Virus record (IMG/VR): IMGVR_UViG_3300045988_129428
Strand: one strand, 5' to 3'
Source: a virus
DNA: 38,466 nucleotides
Positions 1 to 18,403 of this stretch are shown here, in pieces. The notes below the pieces were generated by a model. It worked only from the letters and a program-made list of their open reading frames with translations, searched no databases and had not been told where the DNA came from. The position numbers were made by a program, and so were the translations under genes. The first letter of the stretch is position 1; each line of letters opens with the position of its first letter.

Positions 1-69
1 CAATTTCTTGTAACCCTTGCCTTTTCTATATTACATAATTTAAATTAAGCAATAATTTCAGATACAACA
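1..69. repeat. Terminal direct repeat, left copy (identical to 38398..38466)
   Basis: Read directly: the first 69 nt equal the last 69 nt. The match is cut off by the window edge. Confidence 0.95.
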
Positions 70-182
70 CCTGAACCTACTGTACTAAAAGTATGCAATT
101 TGATTGTTCTTAAAGTTTATAAAAGTATTGATAATTAAGCATTTTGTTTTCATGTTTTTTATAAAGTTTTATAATTATTCAA

Positions 183-210
183 AACTGAGTCGGGAAAAAG
201 TCGGGAAAAT
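183..210 (+). repeat. 28-nt direct repeat AACTGAGTCGGGAAAAAGTCGGGAAAAT, copy 1; candidate att or integrase arm site
   Basis: An exact second copy at 38340..38367 overlaps the integrase stop codon. Each copy holds two tandem AGTCGGGAAAA units 11 nt apart. Confidence 0.8.
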
Positions 211-229
211 CGCTGTAAAAAACTTACAT

Positions 230-451
230 TTATTTTTTATCAAGCAATCCTAATAAATAAATTCTAGAAAACACTTCAACATTATCTAAAATCATTTTTG
301 TTTCTTCCTCACTAAATAATTTTTCATTTAATTTTACTCTGTTTTTTATTATTTCTGTTATTTCCATATTCTTTCTCCATTCTTCAAAATGGAAACGCGT
401 TTCTTTTTCTATTTGATTAAATTGTATCACAAATTTCTGAGTTGTCAACAA
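230..451 (-). CDS. Hypothetical small protein
   Basis: 73-codon ORF whose track start is TTG with no clear RBS. An internal ATG at 367 preceded by GGAGA would give 45 aa. No recognisable motif. Confidence 0.3.
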   Translation of the reverse strand: MLTTQKFVIQFNQIEKETRFHFEEWRKNMEITEIIKNRVKLNEKLFSEEETKMILDNVEVFSRIYLLGLLDKK

Positions 452-456
452 AAATA

Positions 457-504
457 TTTCGACAAAATGCAGTGATTCCAGGCTTTTTAGAGTATTTGTC
501 GAAA
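457..504. promoter_or_regulatory. Inverted pair of TTTGTCGAAA boxes (457..466 reverse, 495..504 forward) in a divergent intergenic region
   Basis: Read directly. The same TGTCGAA core recurs at 1167..1184. CG-containing motifs are rare in this AT-rich DNA. Confidence 0.5.
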
Positions 505-619
505 AATAAGTGTGCTTGTATTAGGCATTTCAAGTTTTAAATAGTTCGCTGGGAGCGAAGAATAGAATTTTATAAATAATTATAATAAAATTTGAGCATA
601 ATAACTTTAGAGGTAATTT

Positions 620-943
620 ATGTTTGTTTTTATTATAAAAAATGTTAGAGAATCTAAAAATATAACTTTATATAGATTAATGAAATTAACTGGTCTTTCT
701 TATTCTTATCTTTCTGAATTAGAAAATAACAAGGTATTTAATCCCAGTTTAAAAACTATGTACACAATTGCCACTGCTCTTGATGTCAAAGTAGATGATT
801 TATTTTATAGTGAATTAGATTTGAAAAAGCTACGTGCAGAAATGCACAATAGAATTGAGATTTTTGGACTAGATTCAAAAGAAGTTCTTGAAGTTAGTCA
901 AATTATAGATCTACTTATAAATGTCAAAATGAAAGAGAGCTAA
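620..943 (+). CDS. XRE/SinR-like HTH regulator with Spo0E-like C-terminal domain
   Basis: RBS AGAGGT lies upstream of the ATG. The N-terminal LSYSYLSELENNKVFNPSLKTMYTIATALDV resembles the SinR HTH (SYLSSIERN..NPS). The C-terminal LKKLRAEMHNRIEIFGLDSKEVLEVSQIIDLLIN matches the Spo0E-family helical hairpin (SQELDxLI signature). Confidence 0.8.
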   Translation: MFVFIIKNVRESKNITLYRLMKLTGLSYSYLSELENNKVFNPSLKTMYTIATALDVKVDDLFYSELDLKKLRAEMHNRIEIFGLDSKEVLEVSQIIDLLINVKMKES

Positions 944-959
944 CTAAATATTAGCTCTC
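935..959. terminator. Hairpin between convergent genes (GAGAGCTAA-7 nt-TTAGCTCTC)
   Basis: Perfect 9-bp inverted repeat spanning both stop codons. There is no strong U tract on either side. Confidence 0.4.
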
Positions 960-1120
960 ACTTCTTTGCAGAGTTCGTTAAAATTTTTATTGCTTATATA
1001 TCGTAAACTTTCAGCAGTCAATACGTTATTTTTAATTGCATACTTGTCCCATTCTTTTTTGCTTAATATCTTTGGTAATTCTCTCATCTTTCGTAGTGAT
1101 TTTTGATACATTCTTTTCAT
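944..1120 (-). CDS. Hypothetical small protein
   Basis: The ATG at 1120 is preceded by GGGAG; the track start at 1129 is GTG. 58 aa, basic, no recognisable motif. Confidence 0.45.
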   Translation of the reverse strand: MKRMYQKSLRKMRELPKILSKKEWDKYAIKNNVLTAESLRYISNKNFNELCKEVRANI

Positions 1121-1166
1121 CTTAATCACTCCCTTAATTTATTATAGCACATTTAGCAAAATATTT

Positions 1167-1184
1167 GTGTCGAAGCTTGTCGAA
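1167..1184 (+). promoter_or_regulatory. Two direct TGTCGAA boxes (GTGTCGAA, CTTGTCGAA)
   Basis: Read directly in the second divergent intergenic region. Same core as 457..504. Confidence 0.45.
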
Positions 1185-1328
1185 CGAAAAATTGCGTAAA
1201 ATCAAGGAAAAATCGACGCTCCAGAATCGATTTTAAGGCGTTTTTATTTCTTAGACAACAAGTTATATGGCTCAAAAAAAGAGTCGAAAAAGTCTTTTTT
1301 TAATTTTTAAACTTTTTTTCAAAAAGTA

Positions 1329-1357
1329 TTGACAAGTCGTAACGACTTTGTTATAAT
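1329..1357 (+). promoter_or_regulatory. Consensus sigma-A-type promoter with a palindromic operator in the spacer
   Basis: TTGACA (1329..1334), 17-nt spacer, TATAAT (1352..1357). The spacer contains the palindrome AGTCGT-A-ACGACT (1335..1347). Confidence 0.7.
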
Positions 1358-1389
1358 ATAATCAAGTTAAGCGAAAGGGGAATCTTAGG

Positions 1390-1605
1390 ATGGAAAAATT
1401 TATAGAAAAAGAAACTGAAAAAGCATATTTAGTGAATGTTAAGGTTGAAAATGTAATTTTAGATAAAGAAAAAATTATCAAAGTCTGGATTCCCAAAAGT
1501 GCAATTACCATAAAAGGACATGAAATTCGTATTGCGTCATGGATAATTCAAAAAAATATAATAAGACAAGATGGAGATACTTTCAAGGGTTTTGTTATCG
1601 CATAG
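1390..1605 (+). CDS. Hypothetical small protein
   Basis: ATG preceded by AAAGGGG. First gene downstream of the consensus promoter. 71 aa. Confidence 0.6.
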   Translation: MEKFIEKETEKAYLVNVKVENVILDKEKIIKVWIPKSAITIKGHEIRIASWIIQKNIIRQDGDTFKGFVIA

Positions 1606-1616
1606 GAGGTTAAAAA

Positions 1617-2078
1617 ATGGAAAAAAGAAAAGCAAATATAATTTTTAACAAAAATGGTCAAGGTTTTACTACAATAAAAATCACATTACCAGTAGGCTGG
1701 ATTAGAGAGATGGGCTTCACAGAAAATGATAAAAAAGCTGTTATAGAGTTTAAAGATAAAGAAATTAAAATTAAAAAGGAGATAAAAGAAATGAATAGAT
1801 TTGAAATTATTGAAAAAATGTTTGAAAAACTTAATATTATTGTAGATGGTAGAGAAATTTGGAATTTAATTGAAAATGATATAAATTCAAATGGAAAAAT
1901 GGACGGAGTTCATTCTATTGAGTTGGGAAAATTGGGTGATAATAGAGATTTATGTTTTGCAGAAGTTGAAATTAAAATGAATTATTCAGAAGAAGATGAT
2001 ACTTATGTTACTGATATAGAGATTCTATCTATTAGTAATAGCAAAGAAGTTATTTATCCCGAAGATATTGAAGTGTAA
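1617..2078 (+). CDS. AbrB/SpoVT-like (looped-hinge) DNA-binding domain protein with an unknown C-terminal domain
   Basis: RBS AGGAGG. The N-terminal TTIKITLPVGWIREMGFTENDKKAVIEFKDKEIKIKK fits the SpoVT-AbrB pattern (v.iPk.ir..lg...gd.v.i....i.i). Confidence 0.65.
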   Translation: MEKRKANIIFNKNGQGFTTIKITLPVGWIREMGFTENDKKAVIEFKDKEIKIKKEIKEMNRFEIIEKMFEKLNIIVDGREIWNLIENDINSNGKMDGVHSIELGKLGDNRDLCFAEVEIKMNYSEEDDTYVTDIEILSISNSKEVIYPEDIEV

Positions 2079-2184
2079 GTGAATAATTAAGTAAAATAAG
2101 CTAGGCATTATTTTCCCAAAAATCCTTGATAATATTATATAAAGTATGTTATTATATAATATATAAATTAAAAAGGGGCAATAT

Positions 2185-3129
2185 ATGAAAGAAAGTAAAA
2201 ATGAAAATAATTTACCGATGAACTGGCTTAATTTTTGGAAATATTTCAGATTTCCCGTTTCGTTAATATTATCATTTATGAATATTTCTTCGGTTATTTA
2301 TTTAATAAATTTAAATAATGCTACAGTTTCCGCTAAAACGTTAATTGCAATACTTATAGATATTTTAATTTTGATTTTTATATCTGTAACTTATGCTTTT
2401 TTCTTGGCTCGTAAATCTATATCGTACAAGATATTTATTTGTTACTTAATTATAATAGAATTGATTTCGACTCCAATTTTAAATATAGTAACTAAATATT
2501 TATATATTGGCTTTCCTACACTTCCAGAACTTATTACTGAATGCGCTTTTACTGTAGTTATATGGGGACTTGTATGGATATTGCCTAATTATATATATTT
2601 CAGTAAACGTGAAAAATATTTTGATAAAAAAAATGATGAATTAGATTTAGATGTTGATAAAATCAAAAAACAAGAGGAAACTGCTGATGCAAAAAGCGAA
2701 GAAGTCCAAAAGCACACTTTTCCTACTTCAATAGAATTTATTCATGAAAACACAAAAAATTTAAAGATAAACAATAAGTTTATAACATGTTTAATACTTA
2801 TAATTGTTGAAACAATAGCAATTTTAATACTTGGAATATTTCTTTTTAAAGAAAAGAGTACTGCTGATAATCAAATGGCTAAAATAATTTCTCTTAATTC
2901 AGAAATAAAGGAACAACGTAGTTCTGCTAGTTTATATAAAACATTGTATAATGAGCAAGAAGATAAGGTAAAATTCATGGACGACCATGTTGTAATTGTA
3001 CCAGAATATACTAATATTTATCACAAATATGAATGTCAATACCTTGACTTAACAAATGGAGGATATATATTTAATCCTGAAAATGCTGAAGCTCAAGGAT
3101 ATAAGGCTTGTAAACATTGTAATAAGTAA
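2185..3129 (+). CDS. Multi-pass membrane protein with a cytoplasmic coiled-coil and a C-terminal Cys/His motif
   Basis: RBS AAGGGG. Several hydrophobic helices lie in the first ~150 aa and another near aa 200-225. The C-terminus is IYHKYECQYL...GYKACKHCNK. Confidence 0.7.
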   Translation: MKESKNENNLPMNWLNFWKYFRFPVSLILSFMNISSVIYLINLNNATVSAKTLIAILIDILILIFISVTYAFFLARKSISYKIFICYLIIIELISTPILNIVTKYLYIGFPTLPELITECAFTVVIWGLVWILPNYIYFSKREKYFDKKNDELDLDVDKIKKQEETADAKSEEVQKHTFPTSIEFIHENTKNLKINNKFITCLILIIVETIAILILGIFLFKEKSTADNQMAKIISLNSEIKEQRSSASLYKTLYNEQEDKVKFMDDHVVIVPEYTNIYHKYECQYLDLTNGGYIFNPENAEAQGYKACKHCNK

Positions 3130-3179: not shown

Positions 3180-6100
3180 TTAATAATCATATGAACCATC
3201 TGGAAATTCTTTATCTGGTTTATTAAGTGTTACCCCTGCAAATTTACTCATAATTTCTAGTTTTTCTTTTACTGTCCTGTTTGGCATATTTCTTACATAA
3301 TTTTCTACTATTTCTCTATCTGAAGCATTTCTTGGTCTATATTCTAATGCATATAAAATAAGTTTTTGAGTGTATGTAGCTCCTTTTATTGAGTAAATAT
3401 AATCAAATACTTTGTCTTTTTTGCTTCCTGTTATCGACTTTCCATTAACTGTTCCATCGTCTTTCTTATCTGCTTTAAATTCTTGTGCTTTATATTGTAA
3501 GTACTTACTCATATTTAAGCCCGAGCCTGTAAAAGATTCTTTAACTATATCATATTTTGTATCCTTTTTTCCTAGCGAATTTTCATATATTGCCTTTTTA
3601 GTTTTTTCATCATATTTACTATTGGCAAGAACCTCTAATTTTTCTGAATCTTTGTCTAATCCTTGTGTGTTAGCTAAAAATTCAAAATAATTGCTAGTAT
3701 TGCCACCGGTTTTTTTAATAGCATTGGTTACTTGTGATAATGTACTCTGTTCATTCTTTAAACAATTTTGTCTGGCATAATCAATTTTTACTTGTTCTGT
3801 ACTATAACTATATATTTTTTCTATTGCTAATTGCTTTTGAGAATCGGACAATTTTTTATATCCATCGGAATTTATTAAATTCTTTAATAATTCATATGAA
3901 GTTTCTCCAAATTGTTTTTTATATTTAGCAAATTCTTTTGATGTCATAACATATTTCTTTTTATCTATTGTCAGATTCTTGTTTATAGTATCAGGGAATA
4001 CTGAACTTTCTCCAGTATTCTCATACACCTTAGTAATCTCTTTGTCTACATTGTTTGAATTTAATTCTTTTCTTGCCCATGGAAATACTGCATTTTCCAA
4101 TGCTCTTAAAGCAATGTTATCTGATTGTTTCTGTTCTTGTCCCCATATATCTGTTTTTATTGGAAGTTTTTGTCTTAATCCTGGAATTTTATTCATTATT
4201 TGAGTTCTTGTTGTATCTATTGCTTTTGGTAATACACCTGTTTTTGTCGAAGTAGTATTTCTTTCATATTCATCAGTTGTTTTAGCAATTTGACCTAAAG
4301 CTGTTGGTATAAATTGATTTACGTATGATTTAATTGAATTTGTTCCTATACCAGCCAACATTTTTGAACTTCCTTGATCATAGCTTTTAAGTGCAGATGT
4401 CAAACCACTAAGCATAGACATTTCAGTCATTGGGTTCATTGCATTACTAAATGAATCTAAGATGTTCATTGATGCGTCAACTACTTTGTTATAGTATTCA
4501 TCCTCATCACTAGAAGATGTTTTCTTTTCTTTTTGAGTTTTCATTAATTCATAACATTCTGCTCCTATAAATAACGGAATGCCTGATGGAGCAAGCCAAT
4601 CTAATGAGTATGTATTGTTTCCAATTGTTATTGCATAGTTTTGACTGCCTCTTCCTTCTTCAAATTTTTCCTTGTCTTCATCATCGCTTCCAGTTGCCTT
4701 TAAGACTCCACAGTTTGCAAGAGCATATCCCACTAATGCTATTCCTGTTCCTGTTAATCCTTTAGAAATGTTGTCTATATATTTATTAGCTGTAATATTG
4801 CCTTTTCTTAGTTGAACTGTATCATATACTGCACTTTTTACTAAACCAACTGGGCTATATTCTAGTCCAGCTTTTGCGACATTTATAGGTGTTTTTTTGA
4901 ATGGCAATGTAGCATCTAATACAAACTTTGAGAATTTGTTCTTATTAGATAATTGATTTATCAACGAAGCTAATTGACTGTCTTGATGAAATGTAGCTTC
5001 TTTCGCTTGTTCAATAGCAAAATTTCTTGCTTTTCCTAGCTGTTGGTCTGTTATAGTGTCTGGAGTTAATTTGTTTGCAGTCATATATTCTGATAGAGCT
5101 TTCACATAGCCTGCTTTTAATCCCCAACCATCTTCCGCTTCTAGTGCTTTATTATTTAAGTCAAACGCTTTTCCAATTGTATTTTCCATTGCATCGCTTT
5201 TAAATGTACGCATATTATTTTCTAGTCTAGTTTTGGGATTATATTTATTTTCATTCAAACCTAGTCTGTCAACAACATTTTCTATATCTGCCTTAGCAAA
5301 TGCTTTTACTTCTTTGCTAGCTGGAATTACGGTATGATTTCTTTCCATGTCTGGATTTATTTTACTTACCGCACTTTCTATTCCTCCTGCAACTTTATTC
5401 TTTATTCCTTGTACTCCCCCCATTGCTGTATTTCCTACAATGTTTCTTATATGGGTTCTAGGATTAGCCAACATTGAGAAATATCTCCAGGCATCAATTT
5501 TTTGTGCCGTTGTTTTTGTTAATTGTTGTCCTAACTCTTTATATACTTCATTTAAGTTTTGTTCTAGTACTTTAGCGTTTTCAGAATTAGTAATTTTGTT
5601 TAGCATTTCTGGTGTCAATTTAAATTGTTCCGCATCTTCTCCTCTTGTTCTTTTTAAGTCTTTGTTCATTTTGTCTACTGACCTTTGCAACCACACTGCT
5701 TGACCTTCTGGAGTTTGATGATTCAATAAAGACATTGCTTGTACTGTTTGACCTGCTGTTGTTCCTGCCATTGCTGTTGCTTGAATGGCATCTTGCAATT
5801 TTGATTTATTACCAGTTTTAGAATAATATTGTATTAACCTTTCTCCTATTGCTATGTCTTCAGCCTTTATAGTACCTCCAGTAGTTGCTCTTGATAGTAA
5901 AGACGATAATTCACTATCAGCTCCAGTTGTTGATATTCTGTCATCAGCTAATTCTAATTGTTTTGAGTTGGATTCTGGAACATAAGTATCAGTTCCCATT
6001 AAACTTTTAGCAATTGCCTTTGCTTCATCAGTTGTATAGTTACTTTTTATTATTGACTCATAATGCTTTCTTCTTTTTTCGCCCTCTTTCTTCTGTTTAG

Positions 6101-9100
6101 TCCACTCGCCAGTTTCTAATTCATTTGACTTATGTGTTGTTTGAGCTTGTTTATTTTCCTGTGTCTTGGTATACGAATTAGCATTACTTGCTTTTTGTAC
6201 TAATATATCCTGCATATTAGTTCTTGTTCCAGAAGCTTTGAAATTATCTTCTAAATACTTTTGCCACGAACCACTCTCTTTTTGTATAGAATATCTATTA
6301 TTCTCTGGAAAATAACCAAATTCATTTATATCATCTCCGCCCCATAAAATATCTTTTGCTTTTACTTTAAGTTCTAAAATATTTCCTTTTCCATCTAACT
6401 GTGAATTATTGTGTAATTCTGCATATTTTTTTGATGGAGTAACCCAATCTCCAAAATTTATTTCATTTCCTGGTGTTGCTCTATATATCATAATCTCTGC
6501 ATCAGGTTTTTTTCTAACTTTTTTCAAAGCATTGAGAGATTCAATATTATAATCTTCTCTCATATTAATATACCATTCTGGATGTTCGAAAACCCCATCC
6601 ATATTTCTTTCAAAATTAGAAGCATTTCCATATTCTTCTGATGGTCGATGAGTCATCATATAATCCGTTTTGTTTTCCGCTTTGTTTGATTCTAGATATA
6701 TTTCACTGTTTGTCGACTCACTGTTATTAACTATATATTCAGCAATATCCGTTCCTAATGTTTTTTCTAACGAATGCTTATCAATAAATGAACCATCATA
6801 AGTTATTTTTCCTGAATTGTTTACCGCTTGTACATAATACACTCCATCTTCTCTTGTTCTAAAAAACAAAGTACTTGCATTATTTAAATTTTCATTTCCT
6901 GTTACATCAAATCTTTTGTCTTGCATAGAAAAAGAACCTGAATTGTTTTCAGATTCTTGCATAGAATATTTAGTAGTAGTATTGACATCTTTGGTTTGAG
7001 GTGCTATACTATCTTTAATAGAAGAGTTAGCAACGTTGGAATATTGTATTCTTTCATTGAAATCTAACTCTTCATTTTTTTTGTATATTTGTTCAAAATT
7101 ATTTTTATTTATATAATTATCTAAATTGTTTCTCCCATAAACACTTTTTATTTGGTTTTCATCTATAAATACATTGTTGTATCTTCCATTGCCATTTATT
7201 TGTATTGGTATAACAATTTCTTTTCCATTATTATCCTTAAATTCTGTAACTACTAAATAATTATTTTCACTTGTTTTATATATAGCTTGTGGGGAGTCTA
7301 AGTTATCAATTGCTTTAATCAATAAATCTTTTCCTAATCCATGGTAATTTACATTCTTAGTTGGCAACCCCAAGTTTTCTGCTTCTTGTAGTGTATAAAT
7401 TGTGCTTTTTATATGTTTTTGAGTAATTAACATTGGTAAATTATCTACTCCATTATCTACCAGTATTTGAGGAGTATAATCCCTTGCTTTTACTTGAGTA
7501 TTTGATTGTAATTGATTATTTAGTGCTTTATCTATTTCACTTGAAAAATTTTCACTTATGTGATAATTTTCCGTATTTTTTAATTCACTATTGCTATTAT
7601 ATGCCTGTGTCCATTTATTGTATAAATCTTCTACAAATTCATTCTGGTTTTTATAGCCTCTAAATTGGTGCCATAAATATTTTATTTCATTATAAATCTT
7701 TTTAAAGAACGATGGATTTGTGTTTGCTACATTGTTAATAAATTCCTGATTTCCAAATAGCTGTGCTGAGACATCTGCTAGTGCTTCTTCTGTTATTTCA
7801 GTAGAATTGTAGTTACCTAATAGTTGTTTTACTGATGTATCAAATTCTACATTACTTTTTCTGTAATTCTCTACAATATTTAGCATTTCTTTTGTTCCAA
7901 TTGCATGTGTCAATTCATGTATTGCTATAAATTCTCCTGCTCTGTTAGAATTAGGGTTTATTGTTATTGTTCCATTAGCATATGAACCATTGACAACTCT
8001 TCCATCTGGAGTTTTTAGTTCTCCATCTAGTCTTATATCTATATCTTTATCTGTTATAATTTTCTCTAACATGTCAATATAAGCATGAGATTCTTTTGAA
8101 TTATCAAAATATTTACTTGCATCTTCTCTTAAATTGTTTATTTTAGCATTGTCGCTTTTTTCATATTGATAACTTTGTGTCAAAAATTCTTTGTTATTTT
8201 CTACAGCTATAGTATTTGTTATATCATTTGTTAAAGAATTATTTTTTCTAGTTTCATTCACAGCATTATTTATTGTATTTACCCACTCGTCTGATGTAAA
8301 TTTCTGAAAAGCTACAGATGTTTTTGATTGACTATCATATTGTGTTATACTTTTACTTGGCTCTATATCGAACCAACTTTTATATGCAATTTGCTCTATC
8401 TCTGCATTGCTTTTGTTAGCTATTCTCTTGCCAATCTCGTCTGCAACTGTCAACCATTGCTTTACAGTTCTTCTTCCATTTCTATTAGTAGGTGTCATAT
8501 CTAGTACTTCATTTACCTCTGTTGAATCATAGATATTAGTATCATTCTTATACTGCATATACTTTTTTCTTCTTGCTTGGTCATTTTTAGAATCTATTTT
8601 TGTGTCTAATCTATTTGCATCTTCTAAAGAGTTAATATTTTGCCTTATTGAACCAATATCTGCATCTGATACTTCATTCATGTTGTTTAATACATCTAAC
8701 ATCATTGTTTTATAATCTTCTGATATATTACTATTTGTTATTTCATTACCTGCTATTTGTTTCAATTGATTTGAGTATGTATTTTCTTTGTTTACTGCCG
8801 GTAAAGAGTTCTGTTCTACATTTATGTTATTATTTTCTTTTATTGCTTCTATAGAACCTTTTATTACTTCTTCTACATTTATTTTACCACTATTTTGAAT
8901 ATCTTTCATTGCTGTTTTTATTTCATTTTGTGTTACTGCTTGTCCATTATTATGTTTGTTTACAACATTTACAGCACTACCAATACCAGCACTAACTCCT
9001 GATAACAATACTGCACTTAATGCTCCATCTATACCCGAATTAATCATTCTTTGCCCCATATTATTCCAATCGGCGCTTTCTTTCCCACCAGTAATTGTTG

Positions 9101-10055
9101 CTGTTAATTCGCTAAGTGGTTCCATGATAGCTTCTTGCGCAAAGTTTTCAGTAATGTCTAAGCCATAGCTACCTAATATCTCTTTACTTAATTCATGTCC
9201 AGTTGCTAATTTAACTCCTTTGTTAAGCATATTACCAGATATTACTGCTTCTGTCCCACCTTCTAATGTTCCCATTATACTTGCATATCCAAATGCCTCA
9301 TCTTCTTTCATTCCTCTTGCTTTGGCATCATCTAAGTAACTACCTCCTGCTGAAGTCATAAACATTGCTGTACTTAAAGCTCTCGCTCCTGGTACTGGTG
9401 CTAAAGCTACTGCCATAGGCAGGGCATTATTTCCTATAGATGGTGCTAATTCAGCCAACTTAGTGCCTAAAAAATTATTAGTTTTAGAAATATTATTTTG
9501 AATAGTGTTCGTTCTCCATTTTTCTATGTCTGCATTGTTAAGTTCTTGATTTGTTTTTGCTATTGGATTTAGTGAACTGTGAATTTTTTCACCTAATGTA
9601 TTACCTACTATTTGTCCGACTTTGTCTGAAAATTCTTTATTCTTAGTCGCTCTATTTAACAATCCTCTAATAATTGTACTTGTTGCTTTTTTAGTGGCTA
9701 TTTTATTACCTTCGTTCATATACTTACTCATATTAGGAATAACATTTTCTATTCCCATTCCAATATTACCTAAAACACCTGTCACATTATCTATTGTATC
9801 TGTAAAATTATTGCTTTCTCTGAATTTCTTTAAATTTTTTGTTTCCTGCTGTGATGCAATTTTTACTCTTGGAAAATCGATTGATGAACTTCTATCATAT
9901 ACTGGCATTTCGTTTTTTGGCTTACTCATGTTTGCAGTTGGTAAATCCATTGAAATTTTGCTATTTGTATTATTTTTATTTTTGCTCATAAAATCCAACA
10001 ATTCTTTTGCTTTTTCTTTTTCTTCATCAGACAATTCATATATTTTTTTTGCCAT
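3180..10055 (-). CDS. Giant (2291 aa) multidomain protein; candidate virion-delivered polyvalent or ejection protein with a zincin (HExxH) domain
   Basis: RBS AAGGAGG. Uninterrupted 6.9-kb ORF. Gly/Ala-rich hydrophobic segments occur at aa ~200-370 and ~1766-1785. HELTH at aa 713-717 (nt 7905..7919). A conserved-looking C-terminal module includes LPFKKTPINV (nt 4878..4907). Confidence 0.9.
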   Translation of the reverse strand: MAKKIYELSDEEKEKAKELLDFMSKNKNNTNSKISMDLPTANMSKPKNEMPVYDRSSSIDFPRVKIASQQETKNLKKFRESNNFTDTIDNVTGVLGNIGMGIENVIPNMSKYMNEGNKIATKKATSTIIRGLLNRATKNKEFSDKVGQIVGNTLGEKIHSSLNPIAKTNQELNNADIEKWRTNTIQNNISKTNNFLGTKLAELAPSIGNNALPMAVALAPVPGARALSTAMFMTSAGGSYLDDAKARGMKEDEAFGYASIMGTLEGGTEAVISGNMLNKGVKLATGHELSKEILGSYGLDITENFAQEAIMEPLSELTATITGGKESADWNNMGQRMINSGIDGALSAVLLSGVSAGIGSAVNVVNKHNNGQAVTQNEIKTAMKDIQNSGKINVEEVIKGSIEAIKENNNINVEQNSLPAVNKENTYSNQLKQIAGNEITNSNISEDYKTMMLDVLNNMNEVSDADIGSIRQNINSLEDANRLDTKIDSKNDQARRKKYMQYKNDTNIYDSTEVNEVLDMTPTNRNGRRTVKQWLTVADEIGKRIANKSNAEIEQIAYKSWFDIEPSKSITQYDSQSKTSVAFQKFTSDEWVNTINNAVNETRKNNSLTNDITNTIAVENNKEFLTQSYQYEKSDNAKINNLREDASKYFDNSKESHAYIDMLEKIITDKDIDIRLDGELKTPDGRVVNGSYANGTITINPNSNRAGEFIAIHELTHAIGTKEMLNIVENYRKSNVEFDTSVKQLLGNYNSTEITEEALADVSAQLFGNQEFINNVANTNPSFFKKIYNEIKYLWHQFRGYKNQNEFVEDLYNKWTQAYNSNSELKNTENYHISENFSSEIDKALNNQLQSNTQVKARDYTPQILVDNGVDNLPMLITQKHIKSTIYTLQEAENLGLPTKNVNYHGLGKDLLIKAIDNLDSPQAIYKTSENNYLVVTEFKDNNGKEIVIPIQINGNGRYNNVFIDENQIKSVYGRNNLDNYINKNNFEQIYKKNEELDFNERIQYSNVANSSIKDSIAPQTKDVNTTTKYSMQESENNSGSFSMQDKRFDVTGNENLNNASTLFFRTREDGVYYVQAVNNSGKITYDGSFIDKHSLEKTLGTDIAEYIVNNSESTNSEIYLESNKAENKTDYMMTHRPSEEYGNASNFERNMDGVFEHPEWYINMREDYNIESLNALKKVRKKPDAEIMIYRATPGNEINFGDWVTPSKKYAELHNNSQLDGKGNILELKVKAKDILWGGDDINEFGYFPENNRYSIQKESGSWQKYLEDNFKASGTRTNMQDILVQKASNANSYTKTQENKQAQTTHKSNELETGEWTKQKKEGEKRRKHYESIIKSNYTTDEAKAIAKSLMGTDTYVPESNSKQLELADDRISTTGADSELSSLLSRATTGGTIKAEDIAIGERLIQYYSKTGNKSKLQDAIQATAMAGTTAGQTVQAMSLLNHQTPEGQAVWLQRSVDKMNKDLKRTRGEDAEQFKLTPEMLNKITNSENAKVLEQNLNEVYKELGQQLTKTTAQKIDAWRYFSMLANPRTHIRNIVGNTAMGGVQGIKNKVAGGIESAVSKINPDMERNHTVIPASKEVKAFAKADIENVVDRLGLNENKYNPKTRLENNMRTFKSDAMENTIGKAFDLNNKALEAEDGWGLKAGYVKALSEYMTANKLTPDTITDQQLGKARNFAIEQAKEATFHQDSQLASLINQLSNKNKFSKFVLDATLPFKKTPINVAKAGLEYSPVGLVKSAVYDTVQLRKGNITANKYIDNISKGLTGTGIALVGYALANCGVLKATGSDDEDKEKFEEGRGSQNYAITIGNNTYSLDWLAPSGIPLFIGAECYELMKTQKEKKTSSSDEDEYYNKVVDASMNILDSFSNAMNPMTEMSMLSGLTSALKSYDQGSSKMLAGIGTNSIKSYVNQFIPTALGQIAKTTDEYERNTTSTKTGVLPKAIDTTRTQIMNKIPGLRQKLPIKTDIWGQEQKQSDNIALRALENAVFPWARKELNSNNVDKEITKVYENTGESSVFPDTINKNLTIDKKKYVMTSKEFAKYKKQFGETSYELLKNLINSDGYKKLSDSQKQLAIEKIYSYSTEQVKIDYARQNCLKNEQSTLSQVTNAIKKTGGNTSNYFEFLANTQGLDKDSEKLEVLANSKYDEKTKKAIYENSLGKKDTKYDIVKESFTGSGLNMSKYLQYKAQEFKADKKDDGTVNGKSITGSKKDKVFDYIYSIKGATYTQKLILYALEYRPRNASDREIVENYVRNMPNRTVKEKLEIMSKFAGVTLNKPDKEFPDGSYDY

Positions 10056-10066
10056 AATCGGCCTCC

Positions 10067-11254
10067 TTATTTATTGGTATAATATTTTATAACCTGCTCT
10101 ACTGATGTAAAATTTTTACCTGAATAACTATCATGTATAATAGCTTCATTTGAACTTCCTGTTCTTCTCCATGGTGGAATACCTGTATTAGGTTTTAAAT
10201 TATTTAAAACTTGTTGTAAAGTCACCTTATGGTTAGAAGAATTTTCATCTTTATTTTCTTTTTTACTATCGTCTTTAAAGCCTTTATTATTTTGAGAATT
10301 GCTTGAAAAGGTTTTATAAGTTTTAGAACTGCTTGAGCTTCTTGAACTACCCGAGCTAGTAGCTTTTTTTTTTGACAATTCATATTGTTTTAACGCTAAA
10401 TCATATTCTTTTTGCCATTGACTATCCGCAACCTTATCTCTACTTACTTGATAATTATAATCTCTATTATTCATTGTTTTTGTATAATCATAATTTGCAA
10501 AATTCATATAATTGCTTAATGCATCTTGATATTTTTGATATGCTAATTGATTGCCATATTTTTGTAACTCTAGTTTTGCATTTTCAATATCAGCTAACAA
10601 TTCGTTTTCTTTTGTTATGTATTGTAATTGTGTATTATTTAATTCTTGATTTATATTTTGAATTGATTTATCTCTATTGGCTTGCAATGAAGCTAAATTA
10701 TTGCCATAAGCATTCTCAATGTTTGCATATGCACTTCCCACAGTTCCTGTTTTGTCTAAACCTGCTTGCGACAATTGTTGTTCCATTGATTTTTTTGCTA
10801 GCATAGAATTAATGTATGCTTGTCTAGCATTATCATTATATGCTTGCATTACATCATCTTTTTGTGCATTTATTTGATTTGTTGCTATTTGTTGTTGGCT
10901 TGCTAATGCATTTTTTCTATTTTCAGCTATTTTTTCATATTGTGCTAGTAATGCTTGCGAATCATTTCCAACATTTGATGTAGCTTTATTTGCGTAATCT
11001 TCTGCTAGCTGTTGTGTTGTTTTTGTAGGTTGAGTAGGTTGAGCCTGAGTTGTTTGTGTTGGTTGTGTAGCAACTGTAGTTCCAGTAGTTTTAACTGTAT
11101 TTGTTTGTCCTGGTAATTTTAACGTATTTCCCGTATATATCAAGTTAGCATTTTTTATATATGGGTTTAGTCCCATAAGAGTACTTACACTTGTATTATA
11201 TCTTTTTGCTATTCCGCTTAATGTATCTCCACTTTTTATTTTATATGTTGACAT
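10067..11254 (-). CDS. LysM-domain protein with Thr/Gln/Pro linker, long coiled-coil and Ser-rich region
   Basis: RBS AGGAGGG. N-terminal [46 protein letters not shown] is a canonical LysM. Confidence 0.85.
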
Positions 11255-11273: not shown

Positions 11274-11294
11274 AGCTAGGCATATAGCCTAGCT
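11274..11294 (-). terminator. Rho-independent terminator after the endolysin gene
   Basis: AGCTAGGC-5 nt-GCCTAGCT, followed on the minus strand by TTATTTTTT. Confidence 0.7.
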
Positions 11295-11295
11295 A

Positions 11296-12261
11296 TTATT
11301 TCATTTGAATACCATCAATTGTATGACCAAAGATTCCTGCGTAACTTTCTGTTCCTGTTTCTGTTTTGCTGTTTACCCAATTTAGCCATCCATCCTCAAT
11401 TGTATGTACTCTGTAATCTACATGGCCTTTTGTTGATTTAATTTTAATACAGTCAATAGATTGTCCATAAATTCCAGCGTATGAGTTTGGATTGCTCCTA
11501 TCATTTTTCTTGTAATTTTTAGAATTTACTTTATCTAGCCAGTTTCCATTTTTTATATGAGCTTGAACTGTAATTTCTCCATACTCTGGTTTACATCTTA
11601 ATCCACTTATTGCTTTTCCATACAAACCTGCATATCCTTCGTCTGAGCTATCACATTTATTTACTTCTGGTAACCATTCTCCAGCATAGGCTTGGTATGT
11701 AATTACTCCTGTATAATCAGGTTCTGGCGTTGGCTCTGGTATTGGTTTAATCTCTTCATCACAAGCTGGTCTGCCATATCCTGCGATATAATCTGCTCCA
11801 ATAGGATAATCCCATTTTGCTACTTCGCTATTTCCTGAGTTGCCTTCTATCGTGTAAACTCTGCCATTCTCTATTTTATAGACTAAACCTGTGTGATATA
11901 TATCTCCTGCTTTTCCAAAGAAGATTTGGTCGCCTACTTGTGGAGTATTAAACAATCTTCCTTTTTGTTTATAAAAATTCATTGAAAAACTACAGCCTGC
12001 ACCTGTTGATTTCTTTGGTTGGCATAGTAATTCTAATGCTTTATCTACTCCATAAGCTTGTACAAAGCACCAGTCTACAAAAATATCGCACCAATCGTAG
12101 CCATTTTTCTTGCCGTTATAAAATCCAGAAATATTATCTAAATCTCTGGCATATTTATTATATTTCCCACTTATATTTGCTGTTTTGTTATCAAGTTGTG
12201 AATTACTCTTTTTTCCTTTATAGCCCACTTCTGCTAGAGCTATTTCTATTGCTTTATTCAT
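11296..12261 (-). CDS. Endolysin: N-terminal CHAP domain plus three ChW-like cell-wall-binding repeats
   Basis: CHAP signatures GYDWCDIFVDWC and GDIYHTGLVY..VYTIEGNSGN. The C-terminus has three repeats ending YAGLYGKAISGL, YAGIYGQSIDCI and YAGIFGHTIDGI, each with a conserved W. Confidence 0.85.
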   Translation of the reverse strand: MNKAIEIALAEVGYKGKKSNSQLDNKTANISGKYNKYARDLDNISGFYNGKKNGYDWCDIFVDWCFVQAYGVDKALELLCQPKKSTGAGCSFSMNFYKQKGRLFNTPQVGDQIFFGKAGDIYHTGLVYKIENGRVYTIEGNSGNSEVAKWDYPIGADYIAGYGRPACDEEIKPIPEPTPEPDYTGVITYQAYAGEWLPEVNKCDSSDEGYAGLYGKAISGLRCKPEYGEITVQAHIKNGNWLDKVNSKNYKKNDRSNPNSYAGIYGQSIDCIKIKSTKGHVDYRVHTIEDGWLNWVNSKTETGTESYAGIFGHTIDGIQMK

Positions 12262-14874: not shown

Positions 14875-15846
14875 TTATCCTCCTATCCAGTGAATATGAG
14901 TTCTTTTCTCACTATTTACAGTTGTTTTCATAAGTTTTAAATACCCCATTTCCACTTCACCTGTTGCTTTTAAGTCCGCTGTTTCCATACCATCTTTGTC
15001 GTATTTCGCTATCTGTTTTCCGTATGCATACATATAAGTACCAGTATTGTTCATTGTCGTACTAAATTCGCTATCTGATTTACCTACACTTACACCACTT
15101 TCATTTATATCAACAGTTGTATTTTTTACAGACTTTACGCCTTCATTGTTTATTTGGTCTATTTGCACTTGCAAACCTTGTGCAGTAGTTGTTACTGTCG
15201 TTTGTTGCTGCTTGATGATGTCTATATCATCTTTAAATGTTTGATTTTCGGCTTCGATTTGTTCAGCTGTTAGATAGTCATTGTTTAGTCTAGTTGTCGT
15301 TTCAGTTACTTGTGAAGATATTTGTCCTAAATTTGTGGATATTTCAACCGTTCTCTCCGTTATATCATTGAAATTATTGTCTATTTCTTCTTTCATAGAA
15401 TCTACATAATCAATAGTGCTATATGATACTTTCTTCTTCCAGTCGCTTTCTTCGTAGCCCTTTCTCCCAACAGTAGTAACTAATATCTCTCCTCTCTTTC
15501 CTTCCGGGTGGTCTGTATCAGATTGTAAAATCCACATATCTCCTGCATTATAGTTTTCTGGCTTTGTTAGATAAGTTTTATTCTTGTTTTTTGCTTCTTC
15601 TTTTGCTCCACTTTCTGTTGTCCAATCTTCGTCATTATATAATCCTATTGTTCTTGTATTTATACAGGTATATACTATATTTCCATCTATCCAAGTATCT
15701 CCCTCATAATATGGAGGATTAGGTTTTGAACCATAGTTCCTGCTAACATTTTCATACTGAGAATTAATTTTCTCTTCGGCACTTGATAACCTTTTATTTA
15801 GATATCCTAGATTAACTGAATCTTCATCATATTTAGGCTCTCCCAT
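14875..15846 (-). CDS. Tail fiber or spike protein with central coiled-coil
   Basis: The N-terminal EDSVNLGYLNKRL resembles the conserved fiber N-terminal motif (D.vNk.yl). Its stop is 1 nt from the next gene's start. Confidence 0.55.
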   Translation of the reverse strand: MGEPKYDEDSVNLGYLNKRLSSAEEKINSQYENVSRNYGSKPNPPYYEGDTWIDGNIVYTCINTRTIGLYNDEDWTTESGAKEEAKNKNKTYLTKPENYNAGDMWILQSDTDHPEGKRGEILVTTVGRKGYEESDWKKKVSYSTIDYVDSMKEEIDNNFNDITERTVEISTNLGQISSQVTETTTRLNNDYLTAEQIEAENQTFKDDIDIIKQQQTTVTTTAQGLQVQIDQINNEGVKSVKNTTVDINESGVSVGKSDSEFSTTMNNTGTYMYAYGKQIAKYDKDGMETADLKATGEVEMGYLKLMKTTVNSEKRTHIHWIGG

Positions 15847-15847: not shown

Positions 15848-17686
15848 TTAATCTCCTTTATAATAACTTCCTACTGTATAAACAACACATATAGAATTAA
15901 AGTTCATATTAGTATTTTCTTTGTTTTCAACATATAAAGAAAAGAAAGAAAGCTTTTTTGCTTTCTTTCTGACAATTGTTGTTTTGGGATATGTTGAATT
16001 AGTATAAACTTTAGACAATACCTGTTTATCTCCATTTTTTAATCTATATCCTATATCTAATTGAGAATTTGTAGGGTTACTTGATATAGCAACCCTTTTT
16101 ATATTCTTTTTATTTGCTATATTATTTAAGTCTAATATAACAGAGTTCCATTCCGCTTCTACATTTTTTGTATTATCTTTAAATCTATTTTCATCGCTAT
16201 TATCTCTAAACTTACATATATTTCCGTATTTATCTCCAAAATACAATTCATTATTCCACACAAACCATATTCTTACAGGTAAATTAGTCCAATAAAACCA
16301 CTCATACTGATAATTACTATATTTTGAATTACTATTAGTTGTTTTGAATCTACTATCTGCTACATAAACATGATCGTTAATTGCTAAGTAATATTTTCCA
16401 TCATTTGATATTCCTACTGCGTTCTTTAAATTAGGTTCTTGCTTCAATTTTGCATCAATATAGTAGCTCTTATGATATACATATATTTCATCTGACAAAG
16501 TTGCTGTATTTAATGCAAATACACCGTTTGCAGTTAATATCAAAGGCTCGTTTATTAATGTATCATGTGCATAATTACTTATATTTCCTTCACCTTTTAC
16601 GCTACCTTCAATATTAAATCTCTCTTCTCCATTAAATGTTGCATATCCTATTCTAAATAAAGTCGCATCTGTATCTGATACATCTTTTAATGCTGCCATT
16701 TTCCCATCGTTCAATCTGACTAATCCTGTTAGTGGTACAACTTCTAAACCTGCTACAATTGTATTATCTGCCGATATGTATGTAACATTATTAATATGCG
16801 AATAACTTATTATATTTGGCAAATCTGGGTTTCCTGCCATAAATACCCTATTGTTGGCTCCTGCATATCCATACACACACATCATACTACATTTGTTTAT
16901 TTGAGATTTATTGCTCTCAATTATTTTTTTATATTTAATTCTTACATTATCTCTATTATCTATTACTGGTTTTCCAACTGCTGAACTAAATATAACTTGT
17001 CCTTTACTTAAATCTACCCTATAATCTCCATCATTTACTTTTTTTATAACCCATTCAGCATTTTCATTCAAAACTTCTACTAATTCTACAGATGTTATAT
17101 TTGTATCGTCTAATTGATATGTTGTATCAGTTTCTGTACTTGTGAATAAATTGATTCTACTGTCTGACATCAAATTTACTTGCTCATAGATTTGACTTGC
17201 TAATCCATTAGGAGCTCTTGCTATCTGTGTTGTAGGAATATATCCTATTTCGTCTAAATATTTGACTTTATTACTACTCTCTAACAAGTTATATACTATT
17301 GCTCTTTTTCCGTCCAAAATAAGCAATTTTGAGTTAATTATAACTCCTTGTGATATAGTATTTGCTAGTCCTGTTAATATCTCTGTATAACTGCTAAAAT
17401 CTGTTTTCATTTCATATAGTTTAGTACCACAATGTACAATAAAAAACTCTCCTGACACCGTGTCTACATTCCATATTCCGTTAATGTTAGCTTTTTGTCC
17501 TAAGTAAGCTAACACTTTATATCCGTTTCTTTTTTCTATTGTTCCATTGTTATTTATAAAATTATATCCTCTAGGGCTTCTTCTTTTATCTATATCGGAT
17601 ATTGAAGAGCTGAAATCTACACCCAAAAATCCTGTTAAATTTGCTTCGTATGTTGTTGGACTTGAAGGAACATTAAAGTTTGCCAT
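15848..17686 (-). CDS. Large tail structural protein (possible nozzle or tubular protein)
   Basis: 612-aa beta-rich protein placed between the adaptor-like gene and the fibers. Assigned by position only. Confidence 0.45.
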   Translation of the reverse strand: MANFNVPSSPTTYEANLTGFLGVDFSSSISDIDKRRSPRGYNFINNNGTIEKRNGYKVLAYLGQKANINGIWNVDTVSGEFFIVHCGTKLYEMKTDFSSYTEILTGLANTISQGVIINSKLLILDGKRAIVYNLLESSNKVKYLDEIGYIPTTQIARAPNGLASQIYEQVNLMSDSRINLFTSTETDTTYQLDDTNITSVELVEVLNENAEWVIKKVNDGDYRVDLSKGQVIFSSAVGKPVIDNRDNVRIKYKKIIESNKSQINKCSMMCVYGYAGANNRVFMAGNPDLPNIISYSHINNVTYISADNTIVAGLEVVPLTGLVRLNDGKMAALKDVSDTDATLFRIGYATFNGEERFNIEGSVKGEGNISNYAHDTLINEPLILTANGVFALNTATLSDEIYVYHKSYYIDAKLKQEPNLKNAVGISNDGKYYLAINDHVYVADSRFKTTNSNSKYSNYQYEWFYWTNLPVRIWFVWNNELYFGDKYGNICKFRDNSDENRFKDNTKNVEAEWNSVILDLNNIANKKNIKRVAISSNPTNSQLDIGYRLKNGDKQVLSKVYTNSTYPKTTIVRKKAKKLSFFSLYVENKENTNMNFNSICVVYTVGSYYKGD

Positions 17687-17687
17687 A

Positions 17688-18119
17688 CTAATATACCTCT
17701 TCTATACTTTCTTGATTTTCTACATTGATATATAAATCTTGTAATCCTACTTCAAATTCATTTCTATATGCGGTCGCCTGTGATATATCATCATCTTTAT
17801 ATAACTGACTAGCAATATATAAAGGAATTAGCACACAAGCTTCTTCTGGTAGTTCTATTTCGTAAGCATCTTTCGTTGTATTATCTATTTTAGTAATACT
17901 CGTTTTATTATATTTTTTATTTTCCTCATCATACTTATATAAGTTCATTACATATGGTTTAATTCTCTGTATAGCTTCATTTGCGACTGCTGGCATAGCA
18001 CTCAAGTACCATTTACAGTCATCATCATTTCTTAATTCTGTCAAATTGTTTACTGTTATAGGCTCATCTTTTGCAAACATCTTTTGTAGTGATATTATTT
18101 GTATTTCTCCCCAAGTCAT
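17688..18119 (-). CDS. Putative head-tail adaptor or head completion protein
   Basis: The ATG at 18119 lies 7 nt after GGAGG; the track start at 18131 is GTG. Assigned by position downstream of the capsid gene. Confidence 0.4.
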   Translation of the reverse strand: MTWGEIQIISLQKMFAKDEPITVNNLTELRNDDDCKWYLSAMPAVANEAIQRIKPYVMNLYKYDEENKKYNKTSITKIDNTTKDAYEIELPEEACVLIPLYIASQLYKDDDISQATAYRNEFEVGLQDLYINVENQESIEEVY

Positions 18120-18184
18120 ATTTTCCTCCACTTCTGCTAGAATCGAACTAGCTTATTCCTTTTAAAGTGATATATTAGGCTAGA

Positions 18185-18403
18185 TTATACTAGCCCTGCA
18201 TTTCTTAATTGCTCAAAAACTGGTCTTGTTACATCAGTTTCTTCGCCTCTTACTATTTTTGCATATTTTTCATTAATACCTACAATGATTTCTTTATCCT
18301 GTGGGTTTAATTTATCTATCGGAATCAATATTTTAATTGTTTCTTCGTTCTTATTCTCTTTTTCTGTTTTCTTTATTTCTTGTTCAATTTTTTTAGTAGC
18401 CAT
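18185..18403 (-). CDS. Small Lys/Glu-rich virion-module protein
   Basis: RBS GGTGGAG. 72 aa, located between the capsid terminator and the adaptor-like gene. Confidence 0.55.
   Translation of the reverse strand: MATKKIEQEIKKTEKENKNEETIKILIPIDKLNPQDKEIIVGINEKYAKIVRGEETDVTRPVFEQLRNAGLV

Follow-up and report, generated by a model that had tools for sequence, protein, structure and literature searches.

The window analysed here is a 38,466-nucleotide stretch of viral DNA (IMG/VR record IMGVR_UViG_3300045988_129428), whose minus strand carries at positions 3180-10055 an uninterrupted open reading frame (ORF) for a protein of 2291 amino acids (aa) and ~258 kDa, referred to below as the giant protein. 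With a probability that we put at roughly three in four, this protein is an internal virion (ejection, or 'pilot') protein of a temperate, short-tailed phage of Gram-positive gut Clostridia, in which a C-terminal module of the IVP-D (internal virion protein D) class and a constant N-terminal module enclose a bay of ~800 residues for exchangeable effector cargo. A preliminary description of the same DNA, made from its letters alone, had proposed a packaged ejection or polyvalent protein; at the sequence level, this proposal is supported by a match of the middle region to the Pfam family MuF_C, by the cassettes found in relatives of the giant protein and by the position of the relatives' genes in the slot of the T7 internal core.

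Homology of the C module with internal virion protein D

A database search returned 271 relatives, whose BLASTP segments, mapped onto the giant protein, divide it into three parts: the N module (residues ~181-490; 33-98% identity), a variable middle (residues ~490-1300) and the C module (residues ~1301-2291; 33-100% identity over segments spanning ~1254/1301-2291). The C-terminal module of ~900 aa delineated in the preliminary description is therefore a real conserved unit among the relatives. It is also widespread: a HMMER search of 1.84 billion cluster representatives, with clusters taken at the 50% identity level, found it in 8,953 cluster proteins at E <= 1e-3 and in 3,661 at E <= 1e-30, and a scan with the family alignment located it in at least 488 IMG/VR contigs (a genome-contig scan with the single sequence as query gave 3 loci, and an alignment query would reach further). 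The proteins listed are mostly 1,500-3,200 aa long, and the module always reaches the C-terminus of the protein, with a median of 2 residues after it.

Searches of Pfam, PHROG, NCBIfam and the PDB sequences gave no match for the C module. More specifically, the NCBIfam search of the giant protein yielded a single noise hit, the PDB sequence search returned nothing with the single protein and only poly-Q artefacts (e.g. huntingtin) with the family profile, and megablast of the giant gene found no match among the GenBank phages. When plasmid records were searched by tblastn, the C module gave one match (E 2e-15), in a 39-kb BPP-1-like element of Bordetella bronchiseptica. The Bordetella coding sequence (CDS) itself matched 78 phage records, mostly from marine T7-like phages; among the matches listed, which include ProddE (8e-32), Synechococcus P60, S-CBP2, pelagiphages and roseophages, most are annotated 'internal virion protein (D)'.

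The relationship can be established directly by profile methods. A hidden Markov model (HMM) built from 107 non-redundant C modules recognised, with the database size set to one million, the IVP-D of ProddE (8.6e-10), CRP-114 gp40 (7.6e-8) and Gjalp gp35 (5.7e-6). In hhalign comparisons, the C module aligned with the C-termini of five Autographiviridae IVP-Ds at 99.7% probability (E 7.5e-27, 513 columns) with the Bordetella bridge left out, and with seven full-length IVP-Ds (those of ProddE, Gjalp, P60, CRP-114 and HTVC304P, Syn5 gp45 and P-SSP7 gp16) at 99.8% (E 2.3e-27), over 538 columns corresponding to residues ~1503-2092. This alignment pairs the motifs AWRYFSMLANPRTHIRN, EATFHQ, LPFKKTPINV and YSLDWLAPSGIPLF. 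Comparisons run in the same way with negative controls (T7 gp16, an alignment of IVP-C proteins and the Page gp20 C-terminus) gave 0.1-0.3%, and no similarity to T7 gp14, gp15 or gp16 was detected, a result for gp16 that is in line with published work. The IVP-D HMM recognises Syn5 gp45 (3e-107) and P-SSP7 gp16 (1.5e-50); gp15 and gp16 of P-SSP7 had been 'assigned by synteny and size'. Altogether, these profile comparisons show that the C-terminal ~1000 residues of the giant protein are a diverged member of the IVP-D class, which fills the T7 gp16 slot in Autographiviridae. A stepwise joining of HMMs was needed by Hardies et al. (2016) to assemble the extended IVP-D family, which includes BPP-1 Bbp10, epsilon15 gp17, H66 gp60, VT2-Sakai orf71 and the C-terminus of N4 gp50 (PMC4819975).

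Note that the Bordetella element (NZ_CP132331.1, 39,087 bp), listed in PLSDB as B. bronchiseptica 'plasmid pA', is evidently a BPP-1-like phage genome, with genes for terminase, portal, capsid, the Bbp16 cement protein, holin, lysozyme and integrase. The IVP-D-like gene of this genome appears to be divided between two CDS that overlap (16231-18069 and 18060-19208), perhaps because of a frameshift.

Domain organization of the giant protein

The modules and cassettes were delimited from the BLASTP segments, from DNA breakpoints between close relatives and from AlphaFold2 (AF2) models, whose reliability is given as the predicted local distance difference test score (pLDDT). Window positions are as follows.

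3180-10055, minus strand: giant ORF, putative polyvalent IVP-D-type ejection protein (ORF calling; identical protein P0001 in public assemblies)
9516-10055, minus strand: residues 1-180, Lys/Asn-rich and poorly conserved N-terminal region (BLASTP, low pLDDT)
8586-9515, minus strand: residues 181-490, conserved N module, alpha-helical and Gly/Ala-rich, with hydrophobic helices 203-232 and 337-362 (BLASTP, AF2)
8205-8585, minus strand: residues 491-617, optional spacer, present or absent in near-identical relatives (BLASTP, DNA breakpoints)
7551-8204, minus strand: residues 618-835, HExxH cassette, zincin-like, optional in the family (AF2 pLDDT 80-97, hhalign 94%)
6987-7550, minus strand: residues 836-1023, MuF-C (PBECR-clade) cassette (Pfam, pLDDT >90)
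6932-6958, minus strand: residues 1033-1042, junction palindrome AAGAATCTGAA-AACAA-TTCAGGTTCTT, cassette border (folding, breakpoints)
6300-6929, minus strand: residues 1043-1252, third cassette, PHROG 2579 labelled 'ParB C-terminal domain' (PHROG, AF2)
6156-6299, minus strand: residues 1253-1300, second junction (RYSIQKESGSWQKYLE...) with a basic linker leading to the C module (BLASTP, DNA breakpoints)
3183-6155, minus strand: residues 1301-2291, conserved all-alpha C module (BLASTP, HMM, AF2)
3780-5549, minus strand: residues ~1503-2092, C-module core, homologous to the C-terminal ~600 aa of Autographiviridae IVP-D (hhalign)

The peptide strings singled out in the preliminary description were all found in place: ALPMAV...SAGG (211-238) and GALSAV...GSAV (344-362) in the N module; IAIHELTHAIG (710-720), LPMLITQKHI (873-882), NYHGLG... 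(903-926) and LVVTEF... (934-951) in the middle; and AWRYFSMLANPRTHIRN (1522-1538), ATFHQDS (1687-1693), LPFKKTPINV (1717-1726) and YSLDWLAPSGIPLFIGA (1816-1832) in the C module, whose core contains AWRYFSMLANPRTHIRN, ATFHQDS, LPFKKTPINV, YSLDWLAPSGIPLF and a hydrophobic helix (residues 1767-1787). The Gly/Ala-rich hydrophobic stretches reported there do exist, but they are only moderately hydrophobic: their Kyte-Doolittle maxima (19 residues) are 1.25, 1.63 and 1.48, and the moderately hydrophobic helices lie at residues 203-232, 337-362 and 1767-1787. In the AF2 model of residues 180-1254, the N module is helical and less confidently predicted, and no Pfam or PHROG model covers it. The HExxH cassette (pLDDT 80-97) and the MuF-C cassette (>90) are compact and confident, and the third block consists of two halves (81-93). 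The middle is a mosaic, since blocks 491-617, 618-835 (HExxH), 836-1040 (MuF-C) and 1041-1254 come and go independently among the relatives.

MuF_C (PF18819) is the only Pfam domain recognised in the giant protein (residues 900-985, E 2.2e-11, 44.2 bits against a cut-off of 27.6), so that the MuF-C or PBECR-type module suspected at residues ~860-960 in the preliminary description is borne out by a Pfam match above threshold. The AF2 domain spans residues 839-994 with pLDDT >90, and the top BFVD matches of the region are MuF-C proteins. MuF-C is a clade of the PBECR predicted RNases, the copy of Mu itself being inactive (PMC5512222); residues 836-1023 are, on this evidence, a MuF-C/PBECR cassette of predicted RNase type. 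The globular region previously noticed at residues 1135-1250 turned out to coincide with the only PHROG match of the giant protein, family 2579 (residues 1119-1253), a small domain also present in ParB-like proteins of mycobacteriophages. In a tblastn search of phages with the whole protein, solely this domain was matched, mostly in mycobacteriophages.

The HExxH cassette contains the sole HExxH motif of the giant protein, HELTH (residues 713-717, window 7905-7919), located on a predicted helix (706-719) that follows three predicted strands (673-699). A conserved EEALAD sequence (residues 763-768), on helices downstream of HELTH, is a candidate for the third ligand. An hhalign comparison of this cassette with the Pfam-recognised zincin cassettes of relatives, two alignments that do not overlap in single-pass searches, gave 94% (E 1.5e-7) through the strand and the HExxH helix. 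In Pfam searches, the cassette had no hit even at E 5, and the MPTase-PolyVal model was also unmatched. Foldseek against the PDB returned nothing below E 0.14 for a query that was the 1075-residue multidomain model of residues 180-1254; its second match was the cyanophage A4 pre-ejectosome, which is suggestive and not significant. From the motif, the predicted topology and the profile match, residues 618-835 are likely to form a zincin-like domain: the zincin of the preliminary description thus stands on these three points, without confirmation by Pfam or Foldseek. The SprT-like/DUF6782/M78 Pfam hits of relatives were considered as direct support for this cassette and discarded, since the HExxH cassettes on which they lie are of another, second type.

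Autoprocessing by the HExxH domain, envisaged in the preliminary description, cannot be obligatory for the family, because only 85 of the 246 full-length relatives (35%) carry an HExxH motif upstream of the C module. The linker motif [KR]YS[MILV]Q was likewise rejected as a universal cleavage site, since only 42 of the 246 family members have it and it is thus confined to a subclade.

Cassette exchange between near-identical phages

Relatives whose N and C modules are 96-99% identical to those of the giant protein have a different middle, with ART-PolyVal, ParB_N, PBECR5, LPD3, LPD23, DUF3990 or the second zincin type (SprT-like/DUF6782/M78 in Pfam) instead. In prophages 91-98% identical in DNA to that of the window, the similarity ends abruptly at residues ~478-487, 604, 619, 1039-1042, 1252-1253 and 1303-1305 and then resumes, the DNA breakpoints coinciding with the cassette borders. 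The family therefore offers a natural experiment, in which one chassis is combined with ART, ParB nuclease, PBECR RNase, zincin and other cassettes in phages that are otherwise 91-98% DNA-identical. A shared chassis with varying cassettes points to injected effectors, which would act early in counter-defence or in takeover of the host.

For some relatives, DNA conservation is highest in the C module (96-98%, compared with 85-94% in the rest of the locus). A different pattern is displayed by one relative (locus L093), which is 95.3% identical in DNA to the window phage over 11.8 kb comprising the capsid, tail, lysis and partner genes and the first 604 residues of the giant protein. No nucleotide similarity is left from residue 604 to ~2165, after which identity returns, at 96.8%, in the DNA for the last ~127 residues and in the genes downstream; the parts of the giant gene conserved with this chassis are window positions 3183-3560 and 8244-10055. 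The C modules of the two giant proteins are 34% identical. It follows that the first ~600 and the last ~127 residues of the giant protein travel with the virion chassis, and that a distant allele can take the place of most of the C module. The contacts for virion incorporation may accordingly reside in the two ends of the protein, and the exchangeable core of the C module would then face the host.

The existence of C-module alleles 34% identical in phages whose other virion genes are 95% DNA-identical, which means that the C module mostly does not co-vary with the chassis, also bears on another explanation. The giant protein might be packaged cargo only, like the Dar proteins of P1, Alt of T4 or MuF-fused effectors, its N and C modules serving for encapsidation and exit and not as a DNA conduit. 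The cassette content, typical of polyvalent effectors, and a monoderm host that has no outer membrane or periplasm to cross would agree with such a role. We nevertheless consider it unlikely, since the C module is homologous to IVP-D proteins, the T7 gp16 class takes part in the trans-envelope channel (PMC8954989), the giant gene of the family lies in the internal-core slot and the giant protein is the only large alpha-helical conduit candidate that the phage encodes.

Genomic context of the giant gene

A protein identical to the giant ORF product (P0001) is on record in public assemblies, one of which is a 194,887-bp human-gut metagenome scaffold where the window DNA is an integrated prophage. 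The window encodes a tyrosine integrase of 375 aa (37218-38345), which also identifies the element as a prophage. Its hosts are uncultured Clostridia metagenome-assembled genomes; the genus Clostridium, named in the preliminary description, could not be verified. Among cultured phages, Page, Pony and Pascal, podophages of Bacillus megaterium that belong to the genus Pagevirus, come closest in portal sequence (34% identity), and the short-tailed morphology of Page has been established by electron microscopy (PMC3990757).

The giant ORF accounts for 17.9% of the window (6876/38466) and is by far its largest ORF, in agreement with the uninterrupted ORF of about 18% and the strong ribosome-binding site noted before. 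The features upstream of it are as follows.

10062-10068, minus strand: ribosome-binding site AAGGAGG (6 nt before the ATG, overlapping the stop codon of the partner gene)
10067-11254, minus strand: partner gene, 395 aa, N-terminal LysM domain and conserved helical core (homologue directly upstream of the giant gene in relatives)
11274-11294, minus strand: terminator-like hairpin between the endolysin and partner genes (folding)

The ribosome-binding site (10068-10062, ATG at 10055) overlaps the stop codon of the partner gene (10069-10067), which suggests translational coupling of the two genes. The LysM partner gene and the giant gene thus form a tightly coupled pair, with a gap of 11 nt that leaves no room for a promoter, behind the terminator-like hairpin (11294-11274). 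The giant gene had been described as lying behind a terminator: the hairpin exists, but it precedes the LysM gene and not the giant gene directly.

On the strand of the giant gene, the late genes begin with those for the small and large terminase subunits and a 581-aa portal, after which come an acidic protein resembling scaffolds, a capsid protein of the HK97 type, small adaptor-like proteins and a 612-aa 'virion structural protein'. They continue with two fibre-like proteins (p323 and tail677), a Dp-1-type holin, a CHAP endolysin and the 395-aa LysM protein, and end with the giant protein. Besides these and the integrase, the window contains no ORF longer than 314 aa. No match to tube, sheath or tape-measure families was found among its structural ORFs, as had been surmised from the letters. 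We regard it as highly improbable that the giant protein is an ordinary tape measure, a tail fibre or some other external protein of the tail. Its great length, Gly/Ala-rich hydrophobic helices similar to those of some tape measures and a few, non-significant matches to BFVD tape-measure entries (E 0.09-0.19) would speak for such an identity, but it has no hit to tape-measure or fibre families in Pfam, PHROGs or NCBIfam, its domain content is enzymatic, the tube, sheath and chaperone genes that would accompany a tape measure are missing from the window and fibres are encoded separately (p323, tail677).

We examined synteny in the 80 best of the at least 488 IMG/VR contigs; these 80 are nearly all <=43 kb. 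The commonest order in these relatives is portal, scaffold, capsid, adaptor, 612-aa protein, ~300-aa partner and giant gene. Where identified, the genes downstream of the giant gene encode fibre-like proteins, followed by the lysis genes (e.g. loci L053, L056, L022, L029 and L044). In a more distant locus with a P22-type portal (L004), the giant gene comes right after a Gp10_C tail-hub gene and before further tail genes and an endolysin gene. Similarly, the matched IVP-D protein of reference Autographiviridae directly precedes the tail-fibre gene. The position of the giant gene in most relatives is the slot of T7 genes 14-16 (internal core) and of the P22 ejection genes. The partner and giant genes follow the fibre and lysis genes only in the subclade of the window (L001, L006, L010-L015 and L090-L093); the unusual placement is thus a local rearrangement and not a property of the family. 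What the preliminary description said of a placement after the lysis cassette accordingly holds for the window, but most relatives have the gene in the T7 core slot.

In ~37 of the 80 loci, the gene directly upstream of the giant gene encodes a homologue of the partner. Conservation of the partner protein is centred on a helical core (residues ~110-395), the LysM domain being an N-terminal add-on of the window subclade. No similarity of the partner protein to IVP-B or IVP-C could be detected.

The genomic context speaks to yet another possibility, namely that the giant gene is an accessory 'moron' or toxin gene at the end of the prophage, expressed separately (e.g. from the lysogen), with a polymorphic-toxin-like or defence function and no part in the virion. 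The window, where the pair stands after the lysis cassette, behind a terminator-like hairpin and beside a variable accessory region at the prophage end, is compatible with this possibility, as is the resemblance of the cassettes to toxin domains. We give it very little weight, for most relatives have the pair within the morphogenesis operon, with the fibre and lysis genes downstream of it. Furthermore, the giant gene is tightly coupled to the gene upstream, it shares strand and operon polarity with the terminase, portal, capsid and tail genes, the N-terminus of its product is not signal peptide-like and its C module is homologous to IVP-D.

Proposed role in infection

Under the interpretation that we favour, an ejection protein carrying exchangeable cargo, a few copies of the giant protein would be packaged in the capsid together with the ~300-aa helical partner, which in the window phage has a LysM peptidoglycan-binding domain. 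Upon infection, these proteins would leave through the portal and the tail in a largely unfolded, helical state. The constant modules would help to build or gate the path of the DNA across the cell wall and membrane, and the middle domains would reach the cytoplasm with the first DNA and act there on host nucleic acids, proteins or defence systems. The zincin, where present, may cut the polypeptide into working parts. We infer the packaging, ejection, channel formation, cytoplasmic arrival of the middle domains, cleavage and cassette targets by analogy with T7, N4 gp50, H66 gp60 and phi24B gp47 and with the concept of polyvalent proteins. The helical prediction, the low cysteine content (3 Cys among 2291 residues), the moderately hydrophobic helices and the peptidoglycan-binding partner fit an ejection protein loosely. 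In T7, the transglycosylase of gp16-N (PMC8954989) is a parallel to the LysM partner, as is the SLT/NlpC protein encoded upstream of Page gp20.

Several observations weigh against this interpretation: (i) at the tblastn level, the C module is absent from 50,697 GenBank phage records, bar one uncultured contig; (ii) the AF2 model of residues 1254-2291, almost entirely helical, is a low-confidence one whose mean pLDDT is 59.9 and which reaches 80-90 only over its last ~290 residues, and a Foldseek search of the PDB with the C-module model gave nothing below E 0.25; (iii) T7 gp16 is matched neither by the C module (no hit in hmmsearch, 0.1% in hhalign) nor by the marine IVP-D alignment, so that the link to a structurally characterised protein rests on synteny, annotation and the extended family of Hardies et al.; (iv) the N module and the partner protein match nothing known and show no similarity to the IVP-C and IVP-D alignments; (v) the hydrophobic segments of the giant protein lie under the usual transmembrane thresholds, except for residues 344-362; and (vi) in the window, the location of the giant gene after the lysis genes and behind the terminator-like hairpin is typical of accessory genes.

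Descriptions of ejection proteins in short-tailed phages come almost exclusively from phages with Gram-negative hosts, and a recent review noted that the phi29-like phages of Gram-positives lack them (PMC8954989). With the giant gene, a protein of the IVP-D type is present in a large lineage of podophage-like prophages (~36-42 kb) that reside in gut Clostridia. As no Pfam or PHROG model covers the C module, it is uniformly annotated as 'hypothetical'; a name would assign a function to a gene that ranks among the largest of the genome in thousands of gut phages. In addition, a scaffold that tolerates foreign domains could serve for the delivery of proteins along with phage DNA.

Comparison with known ejection and polyvalent proteins

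The Autographiviridae IVP-Ds (ProddE gp34, Syn5 gp45, P-SSP7 gp16 and those of pelagiphages and roseophages) share with the giant protein the profile homology over ~540 columns of the C module, including the motifs ...NPxTHxxN..., PFxKTPxN and YSIxxGD...P, and an alpha-helical nature. The matched region is in the C-terminal part of both, and in the relatives of the giant protein the gene precedes the tail-fibre gene. The differences are also marked. The window phage is temperate, with a monoderm Clostridia host, and its giant gene has moved behind the lysis genes. The giant protein is 1.5-1.9 times longer than IVP-D, with an unrelated N module and three inserted enzymatic cassettes. Furthermore, the window has no recognisable IVP-B or IVP-C genes, whose place is taken by the single ~300-aa helical partner.

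Like the polyvalent proteins of Iyer et al. (2017, PMC5512222), the giant protein combines several unrelated enzymatic domains with a late-gene location and architectural mosaicism among orthologues; MuF-C/PBECR and zincin-like domains are common to both, as are the ART, ParB and LPD cassettes of its orthologues. Having at least two disparate domains and lying among late genes, it may be classed as a phage-type polyvalent protein. Polyvalent proteins are anchored by MuF, a portal domain or the N4 virion RNA polymerase, in contrast to the IVP-D-type C module and N module that would anchor the giant protein. Domains destined for the cytoplasm are also hosted by IVP-D homologues, namely the virion RNA polymerase of N4 and H66 gp60 (Hardies et al. 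2016, PMC4819975). Finally, gp47 of phi24B (2811 aa, with LPD domains and MuF-C) was detected at high abundance by proteomics of virions, and an ejection-protein role has been proposed for it (bioRxiv 10.64898/2026.04.10.717836). Compared by its description only, it is similarly a giant of a short-tailed phage with polyvalent domains including MuF-C; it differs by LPD5, LPD1 and LPD38, for which the giant protein has no hits, the cassettes of the latter being different and its host Gram-positive.

Since polyvalent injected proteins and IVP-D homologues with cytoplasm-destined domains have already been published, the giant protein does not represent a new kind of system. The new elements are (i) a very large branch, mostly from uncultured sources and not covered by any Pfam or PHROG model; (ii) monoderm gut Clostridia as hosts, where known here; and (iii) an architecture in which a cargo bay lies between a conserved but unrelated N module and an IVP-D C module, and one helical partner stands in for IVP-B and IVP-C.

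Page gp20 (locus L003, 19786-24825) is a 1679-aa protein with an LPD38 domain, annotated in GenBank as 'hypothetical' and encoded at the end of the structural genes, after an SLT+NlpC/P60 protein. In its family, the C-terminal ~800 aa are constant and some members carry ART-PolyVal or RelA/SpoT domains; gp20 is probably the ejection protein of Pagevirus. The constant C-terminus, the location at the end of the structural genes and the peptidoglycan-active protein encoded just before are reminiscent of the giant protein. A homology between the two was sought by BLASTP and by three hhalign runs with the N and C modules, which failed (<=0.3% in hhalign), and the comparison is kept as an analogy only. 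Neither the giant protein nor any of 31 relatives had a hit to LPD38 (PF18857), and the IVP-D alignment was not matched by the gp20 C-terminus.

A conserved palindrome at a cassette junction

The border between MuF-C and the next cassette is occupied by an 11-bp inverted repeat, AAGAATCTGAA-AACAA-TTCAGGTTCTT (window 6932-6958, minus strand), which encodes QESENNSGSF (residues 1033-1042). It folds with an energy of about -12 kcal/mol (z-scores -3.6 to -5.9), and a G-to-A variant found in other loci (Gly to Asp) makes the stem perfect. The homology breakpoints with relatives fall at the 3' arm of the palindrome. The exact 29-nt element is present in 24 IMG/VR contigs, always in frame inside these giant genes, flanked by at least 11 different upstream and at least 14 different downstream sequences. 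It may act as a junction for recombination or as an attenuator within the gene, or it may be a linker that hitch-hikes. As a tentative and rather doubtful extension, the family might constitute a large unrecognised branch of T7-type IVP-D in phages of monoderm gut Firmicutes and act as a modular delivery platform, the cassettes of which would be exchanged at defined junctions, one being the conserved 29-nt palindrome (QESENNS[G/D]SF) as a site of recombination or template switching.

Neighbouring genes

The 612-aa protein (window 15848-17686, minus strand) co-occurs with the giant gene in 51 of the 80 loci and has a weak PHROG 'amidase' match at residues 382-550; it may be an analogue of the tail nozzle or tube B, or else a virion-associated wall hydrolase. 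Beyond the giant gene, positions 1-3129 of the window contain plus-strand genes, including a convergent 314-aa ORF (2185-3129) with a weak match to the Ada Zn-binding domain, which is conserved beside the giant gene. The stretch between this ORF and a helix-turn-helix/Spo0E-like regulator gene (620-943) differs among relatives, with DUF433 and DUF5615 in L090, SocA_Panacea in L093 and other small ORFs in L091; this end of the prophage looks like a variable accessory, toxin-antitoxin or defence islet.

Exchanges between near-identical relatives also concern the lysis and fibre genes. The endolysin (window 11296-12261) is of the CHAP type here and is swapped for Peptidase_M23 in L091 and for Amidase_2 in L006, and the 323-aa fibre-like protein (window 14875-15846) is replaced in L092 by a 713-aa collagen-repeat protein.

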